Notes under the pieces: model-generated
Database searches by the model: none
Told to the model about the DNA's origin: nothing
Seen by the model: only the letters and a program-made list of their open reading frames with translations
Shown here: positions 5,551 through 6,189 of the stretch, piece after piece
Layout of the letters: each line of letters starts with the position of its first letter
Numbering within the stretch: the stretch's first letter is position 1
Program-made: the position numbers and the translations under genes
Source: Oscillospiraceae bacterium
GTDB lineage: Bacteria > Bacillota > Clostridia > Oscillospirales > CAG-272
Direction of reading: 5' to 3'
Assembly (NCBI GenBank): GCA_015064805.1
Contig: SVRN01000009.1
Coordinates: forward strand, 2,614-66,613
DNA: 64,000 nucleotides

Positions 5551-6189
5551 TTATTATTTTTTTAGCAACCGTTTCTACAGCCTCACACTGCACTTCGTGC
5601 GCGTTCGGTGTACCGGTTTTTTATGTTACTTCTTGGTACGCACCAAGAAGTAACCAAGAAATGCGCCCAGGCGTTCCCCCTGGGAACCCCCCGGCATTGC
5701 CGCTCTTCAAAGAGTAGCAGGAGAAAGACATAAGAACTTATTCTGCATCGCTCGCCGTTTTGCCACCACGAGCGGCAGGCAGAGAGAGCAAGAACGTTTT
5801 GCTTTCTTGGTAGGGGCTGGCGCCTCGACAGCCCGTTTTGGTGGCAGGCGCAGAAAACAAAATCGTTTTTGCTGAAAAGTTAGTTAAACCGGGGTGCGTC
5901 GCAGTTGGCAAAAACTTTTTTCTTTTATGCTTGCGTGCGTCTTTCATGTTGGCGTTTTTATTGAAAACGCCAACGCAAAAGCTGAAGATGCTCACTTTCG
6001 CGAAAAAATGAGTGGAGCGACAGCGGAACGACTTTTCGCGTTGCGAGTTTCCAAAGGGCATTAGGCCCTTTGGCGCGTTTCTTCCGCCACTTCTTGCCGC
6101 GTAGCAAGAAGTGGCATCAAACCCGCACAGCGCGGCGCGTCAGCTGTACGCGCGTCCGTAGGAGAAAATGTGGAAAAAAACAGCTAAAC
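5551..6189 (+). repeat. HME copy 3 (used here as the reference copy)
   Basis: Has all core modules in order, plus the REP-2 unit at 5810-5834. It ends exactly at the remB stop codon. Confidence 0.85.

Follow-up and report, generated by a model that had tools for sequence, protein, structure and literature searches.

Hairpin-rich composite repeats around the chromosomal origin of an uncultured Clostridia bacterium from the ruminant gut

We analyzed a stretch of 64,000 nt (the window) from an Oscillospiraceae bacterium of CAG-272 (GCA_015064805.1, contig SVRN01000009.1, positions 2,614 to 66,613 of the forward strand). The organism is uncultured and lives in the ruminant gut, and the window covers the origin region of its chromosome. 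The minus strand carries gyrB (3533-5519), recF (6459-7586), dnaN (7600-8751) and dnaA (10338-11738); copA, pbp2, a CAAX protease gene, mreB and maf follow beyond dnaA. Between a small open reading frame (ORF) that follows recF and the start of gyrB at 5519 lies the element E3 (5551-6189, plus strand), the subject of an earlier sequence-only reading in which its two ends were likened to a pair of inverted repetitive extragenic palindromes (REPs), the sequences recognized by REP-associated tyrosine transposases (RAYTs). The window contains 13 copies of this hairpin-rich mosaic repeat, E3 among them. The copies are non-coding, measure 0.2 to 0.85 kb, are all intergenic and together occupy 8.3 kb, or 13% of the 64 kb, at a density of one per ~5 kb.

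Placed by exact string match, the parts of E3 form two mirrored arms on the plus strand. From the left, an A/T-rich outer unit ending in CTAC (5551-5578) is followed by a GC-rich tip (5579-5616), an imperfect palindrome no more stable than its shuffles, and then by a hairpin with a TTCTT core (the C module, 5625-5654), the linker CAAGAAATGCGCC (5655-5667) and the D hairpin (5666-5684). The interior holds a nested canonical REP (GTAG GGGCTG gcgcctcga CAGCCC, 5810-5834), a central covarying hairpin (5948-5974) and, directly after the latter, the conserved unpaired motif GCAAAAGCTGAAGATGC (5975-5991). Outward from there run the K hairpin (6051-6073) with its CGCGTTTCTTCCG linker, the right TTCTT-core hairpin (6086-6115), a right tip (6122-6157) that contains GCGCGT-CAGCTGT-ACGCGC-GTCC and is of a different sequence type from the left one, and GTAG with the right outer unit (6158-6189). 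The string that had been read at 6138-6161, CGTCAGCTGTACGCGCGTCCGTAG, is present there. The proposed arm order was likewise borne out: an A/T-rich outer unit of ~30 nt, a GC-rich tip palindrome, a TTCTT-core hairpin (a perfect stem of 10-11 bp), a CAAGAA(A)NCGCC linker and a D or K hairpin, mirrored on the other side. Inverted arms of 63-138 nt with 71-83% identity are found in nine of the ten full copies, in which left-right alignment scores are 24-42 compared with ~10 for shuffles; in copy 1 (E1), positions 747-781 and the reverse complement of 1218-1251 do match at 32 of 34 positions. The 31-nt outer-unit consensus of the earlier reading occurs verbatim at the left end of E12 (reverse strand, ending at ~58834), and our profile consensus for this unit is GGAGGGGGTTAAGCTAAATTTTTAACAACTTCTCCTAC. 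Alternating palindromic units, mirror symmetry, kept linkers (CAAGAAA.CGCC and its complement) and 13 copies in 64 kb are features of the type seen in bacterial interspersed mosaic elements (BIMEs). Each element is a series of 7 to 10 independent stem-loops in a conserved, roughly mirror-symmetric order, with a GC-rich imperfect hairpin at each end.

The internal stems of these elements are kept by compensatory changes. In 8.6 kb of elements we counted 88 hairpins with a length of at least 8 bp, whereas shuffles have ~7 and coding sequence (9.3 kb) has 10; the pattern ACTTCTTGS-N6-SCAAGAAGT occurs 13 times against an expectation of 0.00. When the central hairpin was aligned through its conserved flanks only, in 18 copies from the window and from relatives, 96.4% of positions were paired and both sides had changed in 7 of 11 pairs; none of 500 shuffles reached its score, and shifting the partner by one column reduced pairing to ~42%. 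Local stems are ~96-100% paired while the arms are only 71-83% identical and frequently carry different tip types, so it is the local hairpins that are the preserved units and not a long left-right stem of the kind formed by REPINs (REP doublets forming hairpins). At the gathering thresholds there was no match to a structured RNA family in Rfam 15, and at E values up to 1 we obtained only a chance match to a miRNA. A scan for promoters and terminators gave only weak hairpin-plus-T sites, which face outward from the K and D hairpins, and no convincing promoter in the outer units. Of the ten copies located between co-directional genes, nine have the same orientation relative to transcription (manual map; binomial p ~0.02), which is modest evidence for co-transcription and for selection at the level of RNA or transcription. 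This compensatory evolution provides a ready data set for asking whether repeat hairpins act as RNA or as single-stranded DNA.

The ends of the elements depart from the REP layout. We pooled ends from metagenome contigs, from sister species and from the window itself (94 in all) and found, at the junction of outer unit and tip, CTAC in 36% (12 of 22 in the window), GTAG-CC in 16%, TTTTG in 15%, a CTTGRG-like motif in ~15% by a rough eye count (3 of 94 in the automated class) and other sequences in the remaining ends. In the window, 5 of ~12 right ends have GTAG, and AAAAG, AATAG or CCGAG takes its place at the rest. REPs are defined by a 5' GT[AG]G tag ahead of the hairpin (PMC3733652, PMC6006769); here the commonest tag 5' of the hairpin is CTAC, in reversed polarity, and the claim of a conserved GTAG beside the palindrome does not stand. 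The tips are GC-rich imperfect palindromes of 35-45 nt in several variants (CTAC-GGACG..., GTAG-CC-GGACG... and TTTTGACG...), and the two tips of one element are often of different types, being near-identical only in copy 1. Nor do the tips that had been cited (6118-6189, 1205-1275 and 735-795) fold more stably than expected, with z scores of +0.1 to -0.55 against dinucleotide shuffles; the sole clearly stable type is GGACGATCATAC...TGATCTGTACC (2758-2802; z -3.5). The idea of a REPIN pair is not supported either, since the ends are 0.35-0.8 kb apart and the arms do not covary as one long hairpin. What survives of the REP-like ends is a GC-rich hairpin whose foot adjoins a recurrent tetranucleotide, whereas the expected polarity and tag conservation do not. 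Nevertheless, the foot of the tips, GGAC...GTCC, together with the TTCTCCT(T) ahead of it, is similar to the surroundings of a canonical REP at 60490-60533, in which TTTCTCCTTGTAG is followed by GGACCG..., and this makes a degenerate evolutionary relation between tips and REPs plausible; the foot and the upstream context are all that the two have in common. We regard the ends as REP-related in form, and perhaps in origin, but not as bona fide GTAG REPs.

Two other types of terminus were considered. Duplication of a TA target is inconsistent among copies, with TA possible at both ends in four or five copies and missing at one end in five. A resemblance of GTTTAGC to the GTTRRRY motif of integron attC sites was dismissed because the elements are flanked by essential housekeeping genes whose order is conserved, and because the motif itself does not fit. 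Of the three C-rich runs that had been cited just outside the tips (58858-58880, 45196-45205 and 47652-47690), the one at 45196-45205 is only CAAAATCCCC. G-rich runs (C-rich on the gene-sense strand) adjoin many outer units externally (18950-18980, 47652-47677, 58858-58880 and 63150-63175) and are part of the profile consensus of that unit (GGAGGGGG...); read on the mRNA-sense strand, they are C-tracts slightly upstream of ribosome-binding sites.

The other copies in the window are spread over its whole length. On the plus strand, E1 (720-1275) lies between an mreD-like gene and gyrA, E2 (2735-3283, with an extra arm described below) between gyrB and mreC, and E4 (8825-9530) between dnaN and the DnaA-box cluster of the presumed oriC. 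A mini or truncated copy at 10030-10114 consists of an outer unit ending in TTCTCCTAC that is fused directly to the GCCACCACGAGCGGCAGGCG module. E5 (18974-19600), between the CAAX protease gene and mreB, is one-armed; E6 (20735-21474) separates mreB from maf; E7 is found at 24465-25112; and E8 (30816-31650) lies between divergent genes. E11 (47430-47650) is partial, consisting of the right arm only, and E13 (63171-63700) has an atypical center and right end, so that with E5 there are three one-armed or atypical copies. Three copies are on the minus strand: E9 (33028-33640) between the convergent genes cca and atpD, E10 (44374-45203), whose left end has two tandem tips, and E12 (58078-58880). 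A module of three hairpins (~80 nt) is present in the right tip of E4 (9413-9487), in the left tip of E8 (30855-30929, minus strand) and in E12 (58736-58810), with a variant in E6 (21291-21369). It is nested in the apex of a tip hairpin or between K and C hairpins, behaving as an element within an element, and its stems covary between the variants.

The copies are partly orthologous across species, with elements at orthologous sites in relatives of 72-90% RecF identity. A sister species (GCA_017507985.1, 89% RecF identity) shares E1-E3, E6 and E7, and its orthologous sites with elements are DUF721-gyrB, gyrB-mreC, mreD-gyrA, maf-mreB and upstream of the DUF4340 gene. Within the species, contigs were identified by exact RecF and MreB proteins, and spacing at these loci is identical in the 10 listed of 19 RecF contigs and the 10 listed of 17 MreB contigs, no two of one set coming from the same metagenome sample. 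Between species, whole hairpins of orthologous copies are replaced by other alleles, and these alleles are also seen in paralogues. The extra arm of E2, of ~294 nt, is flanked by a 35-nt direct repeat (ACCACGAGCGGCAGATATGGGGAGCAA.AAGTT; 2952-2989 and 3246-3283) and is missing from the orthologous copies of two sister species; it looks like the product of unequal recombination between shared modules. The core of E4 is missing in a sister species (L099/L100) and present in three other relatives, and was therefore probably lost in the former. The filled site reads ...TAT, core, GTAGAAGAAGT and the empty site ...TATA followed by TGTAAAAGAAGT, so the breakpoints lie exactly at the hairpin feet with no evident duplication; the empty site keeps ~23 nt of the outer unit on the dnaN side, with GTAA replacing GTAG. 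Conversely, E5 is present only in the species of the window and is up to 93% identical, in part, to E10; as it is absent from all sister species examined, it represents a gain in this lineage. Gain and loss are thus rare, and recombination between modules is frequent.

The family was found in a clade of uncultured ruminant-gut Clostridia. Relatives of the window proteins come from ruminant-gut metagenomes and from metagenome-assembled genomes labelled Clostridia, Oscillospiraceae or Acutalibacteraceae, and the lineage seems fairly isolated as MreB identity drops from 75% directly to less than 65%. The element was found in 32 of 120 metagenome contigs matched by hairpin pattern. There was no blastn match to it in a plasmid collection, and a set of viral contigs gave eight single hairpin-pattern matches at chance level and no element. 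Our search of open-access papers and preprints, with subscription journals outside its scope, turned up no account of such elements in Clostridia. Contigs of the clade are typically 1.5-3 kb, and many end within an element. Elements that make up 13% of an origin-proximal region fragment short-read metagenome assemblies, with consequences for the quality of the genomes that are recovered from a lineage abundant in the ruminant gut.

The role assigned to the RAYT gene is a separate matter. The gene at 14774-15364 (plus strand; 196 amino acids from an ATG at 14774) encodes a genuine RAYT homologue, as had been claimed, with an HUH motif (NHIHI) and a Tyr motif (YIYENP). The protein matches Escherichia coli TnpAREP (4ER8) with an E value of 4.2e-6 over residues 150-202 and NCBIfam NF047646 (REP_Tyr_transpos) with an E value of 3.8e-12, a partial match of 46 bits against a cutoff of 80; Pfam Y1_Tnp was undetected in this ORF. 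Its W, Q, D, H and R residues align with the GTAG-contact residues of E. coli TnpAREP (PMC6006769). The evident cognate repeat of this enzyme is a small canonical REP in which GTAG is followed by the hairpin GGACCG-gcgtcctcga-CGGTCC (GTAG-GGACCGGCGTCCTCGACGGTCC). This REP is present in frame within the RAYT gene itself, as one forward unit (14891-14916) encoding VGTGVPDGP and as four tandem reverse units of 27 nt (15060-15168) encoding DGPSRTPVT, and the two positions bracket the part that encodes the HUH motif (14917-15142). This REP lies inside the gene in all 21 inspected loci of RAYT homologues, nearly always as an inverted pair; the number of tandem REPs varies among them (proteins of 166-239 amino acids), and some have a compensatory GGACAG/CTGTCC stem. 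In the large elements, canonical GTAG REPs have the status of an optional internal module only: a relative with a compensating GGGCTG/CAGCCC stem is found at the same internal position in five of them (5810-5834, 9088, 19365, 44757 on the minus strand and 58520 on the minus strand), identical among the five copies. On its flanks, the RAYT gene has an ordinary terminator and a single small canonical REP, but no large element. A widespread RAYT with its own in-frame REP pair around the HUH motif may bear on the regulation or movement of 'domesticated' transposases.

The distributions of the RAYT and of the elements do not coincide. In a collection of species-representative genomes, RAYT relatives were present in at least 495 of 599 candidate stretches. 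The best 80 RAYT loci from other Clostridia (20 kb each, ~1.1 Mb in total; 40-86% RAYT identity) are not syntenic with the window, and they contain canonical REPs and gave no blastn match to the large element. In the sister species, copA and pbp2 are only 50 nt apart where the window has the RAYT gene; as orthologous elements are present in this species, the elements predate the RAYT insertion. We saw no RAYT in 135 kb of sister-species sequence, a single copy elsewhere in those genomes being possible. The claim that the RAYT moves the elements is thus not supported, in view of the lack of co-distribution (none of the 80 RAYT loci has an element, and the elements of the sister species have no syntenic RAYT) and of its having a canonical REP of its own; more probably, this RAYT services the small canonical REPs rather than the large elements. 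Relatives of up to 86% identity in unrelated neighborhoods, together with the 50-nt empty site, make the RAYT look horizontally or intragenomically mobile and not vertically 'domesticated'.

An inverted pair of canonical REPs (60508-60533 and 61258-61283), whose inverted flanks are extended (CTCATAAGGA.GTTT...), bounds an A/T-rich cassette (60483-61310). The cassette contains an ORF of 136 amino acids (60606-61016, minus strand) that has no Pfam match, and a terminator nearly identical to the one following the RAYT gene. A hairpin-plus-promoter-like module (GGCAGAG...CTCTGCCGATTTGTG(G/T)TAT(C)ATAAT) precedes differing cargo, namely, the RAYT gene in the window (14716-14760) and a DUF559 gene at the copA-adjacent site of a sister species (L115 700-1060). 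A related hairpin (CTCTGCCGAAAATTATGTG) is found at 61215-61250 in the cassette at 60.5-61.3 kb, beside the right-hand REP.

Scanning the spacer between dnaA and dnaN (9540-10338) with at most one mismatch to TTATCCACA detected DnaA boxes on the minus strand at 9702, 9804, 9829, 10001 and 10022 (range 9702-10030), and because of this cluster the spacer probably belongs to oriC. E4 lies between the DnaA-box cluster and dnaN, and the mini-copy at 10030-10114 is inside the cluster. Cumulative GC skew rises to ~31 kb and then falls, changing sign at 31-33 kb, away from dnaA and oriC (~10-12 kb); since the sign change is not at dnaA, the orientation of the elements cannot be related to the direction of replication. 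To the right of dnaA, ~19 kb of genes (pbp2 to an ABC transporter gene) are on the minus strand. Elsewhere, an ORF of 1144 amino acids (54572-58006) contains a 309-nt tandem repeat (55927-56509; 1.9 copies by Tandem Repeats Finder), with a third copy at 56592-56878 that is 83-86% identical.

Our best explanation, which we hold tentatively, is that 5551-6189 is a lineage-specific composite palindromic repeat with a BIME-like make-up, an outline similar to that of miniature inverted-repeat transposable elements (MITEs) and degenerate REP-related ends. Rare new copies would arise through a reaction on folded single strands at the foot of a hairpin, of an HUH/Y1-like type and supplied in trans. 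Most of the diversity would stem from recombination or gene conversion between shared modules, and copies may persist as co-transcribed intercistronic arrays of hairpins that are either tolerated or of use, for instance in keeping transcripts stable or in insulation. Several results weigh against this explanation. No enzyme could be linked to the elements, and no presence/absence polymorphism, as expected of ongoing mobility, was seen in the RecF and MreB loci listed. The ends are ragged and the junction motifs heterogeneous across copies, so the termini rest on one clean filled/empty pair (E4); in the corresponding pair for E5, one breakpoint falls within the central region of the element, and the outer-unit profile finds no outer units in the two empty alleles. 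As to the strand that folds, G.T mismatches (15) are not significantly more frequent than A.C mismatches (9). The orientation bias is modest (9 of 10), and other loci are unreliable on this point due to shadow ORFs in crude ORF calls.

Two of the alternatives, while unlikely, deserve some weight. The elements could be an undescribed class of large, self-folding mobile DNA in Clostridia, whose core, bounded by GC-rich hairpins, would leave and enter a site exactly at the feet of these hairpins. The target would be an A/T-rich palindromic 'cradle' (...TTCTTCTAC and GTAGAAGAA..., with the insertion point between the two), the enzyme would be other than this RAYT, and the hairpin array would be selected as a functional, co-transcribed RNA scaffold. 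The outer unit is conserved among unrelated loci, yet it is partly retained at the empty site of E4, and pairs of outer units without a core ('empty cradles') were found neither by regular expression nor by nhmmer profile. We would likewise give some credence, well below even, to an absence of active mobility, in which the elements are cis-acting structured RNA or DNA modules (intercistronic stabilizers, terminators, insulators or arrays of protein-binding sites) that are selected at fixed sites and are homogenized or spread by homologous recombination. Strong covariation, loops and single-stranded motifs such as GCAAAAGCTGAAGA that are kept down to 72% RecF identity, orientation biased with respect to transcription, orthologous positions across species that are fixed within species, and indels flanked by shared modules all fit this account. 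However, the mirror symmetry of the arms is unexpected for RNA, copies lie beside unrelated genes that include divergent (E8) and convergent (E9) pairs, E5 is a new lineage-specific copy with 93% identity in part to E10, Rfam has no match and the wobble asymmetry is not significant.

The remaining alternatives rely on known transposition enzymes. A giant REPIN, whose two REP-like ends are recognized and moved by the RAYT of 14774-15364, seems to us decidedly unlikely, even though the window does contain a RAYT homologue with intact HUH and Tyr motifs that retains the residues contacting the GTAG guide (W, Q, E/D, H and R in kniWQyRsnDHiiRn; PMC6006769), the tip foot GGAC/GTCC equals the foot of the REP stem, GTAG with a CC spacer stands 5' of the hairpin in 16% of tips and the E4 core is bounded by hairpin feet with no evident duplication. 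Set against these points are the tips themselves, most of which have CTAC or no such motif on the 5' side, the arms that do not covary, the terminator and small REP that flank the RAYT gene in place of elements, the best 80 RAYT loci with canonical REPs and without a trace of the element, and the sister species that shares E1-E3, E6 and E7 and has a 50-nt gap at the RAYT site. A conventional MITE of a DDE transposon (e.g., IS630/Tc1-like), with long terminal inverted repeats (TIRs) starting at CGGACG... and with the TA of CTAC/GTAG as target duplication, is the account that we doubt most. Inverted ends are present, size and intergenic location fit, and the two ends of E2, E3, E4 and E6 can be read as ...C-TA-CGGAC...GTCCG-TA-G.... 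Of the full copies, however, half have TA at one end only, the other end having the conserved non-TA variant GTCAAAAGGAG; the empty site of E4 is GGTATATGTAAAAG instead of one clean TA; neither the window nor ~2 Mb of retrieved loci showed a related transposase gene, and no autonomous partner with matching ends was seen in these loci; and a DDE MITE has no need of compensatory changes in its stems.

Among known systems, IS200/IS605 elements and palindrome-associated transposable elements (PATEs) have in common with the present family the hairpins at the ends, a foot-adjoining tetranucleotide that stays with the flank in the empty site and the lack of an evident target duplication (E4). The ends of IS200/IS605 are not inverted repeats of each other, unlike those described here, and we found no feature like TnpA(IS200), TnpB or omega RNA, Rfam again yielding nothing. 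By description only, there is also a likeness to BOX of Streptococcus pneumoniae, Correia, ERIC and RUP, which are modular non-coding repeats (BOX in a Firmicute) with partly complementary end modules, a varying number of internal modules, predicted folding and co-transcription. The present elements are larger than these, with many more types of module, nested insertions and no consistent TA duplication, and no sequence relationship is expected.

With REPINs (PMC3116915, PMC5581495), the elements share inverted palindromic ends, compensatory stems, long persistence with vertical inheritance and a RAYT in the genome. A REPIN, however, is ~100 nt long and folds as a single long hairpin (Bertels and Rainey 2011, PMC3116915; Bertels et al. 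2017, PMC5581495), whereas here 0.35-0.8 kb separate the ends, and local stems remain paired although the arms diverge. The elements were not found beside RAYT relatives, and this RAYT, whose position is not syntenic between genomes, has a small REP of its own. The closest known kinds are BIMEs and the TIR repeats of Pseudomonas (PMC3733652), among which Di Nocera et al. (2013, PMC3733652) described composite REP-derived repeats formed of a degenerate REP plus an unrelated stem-loop. Common to these and to the present family are an extragenic mosaic of opposed palindromic units split by other conserved motifs, the joining of degenerate REP units to unrelated stem-loops, stems with compensatory or G-T variation, high copy number and location between unidirectional or convergent genes. 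Compared with BIMEs, the present elements are far larger (0.2-0.85 kb, with 7 to 10 distinct hairpin modules), their end hairpins mostly have 5' CTAC or no tag instead of GT[AG]G, they show no association with a flanking RAYT and their host belongs to a Clostridia lineage. As a survey of tagged REPs lists no Firmicutes (PMC3733652), the present elements, if they are REP-derived, would extend the biology of REPs and BIMEs to this phylum and show how small REPs can seed very large composite repeats.

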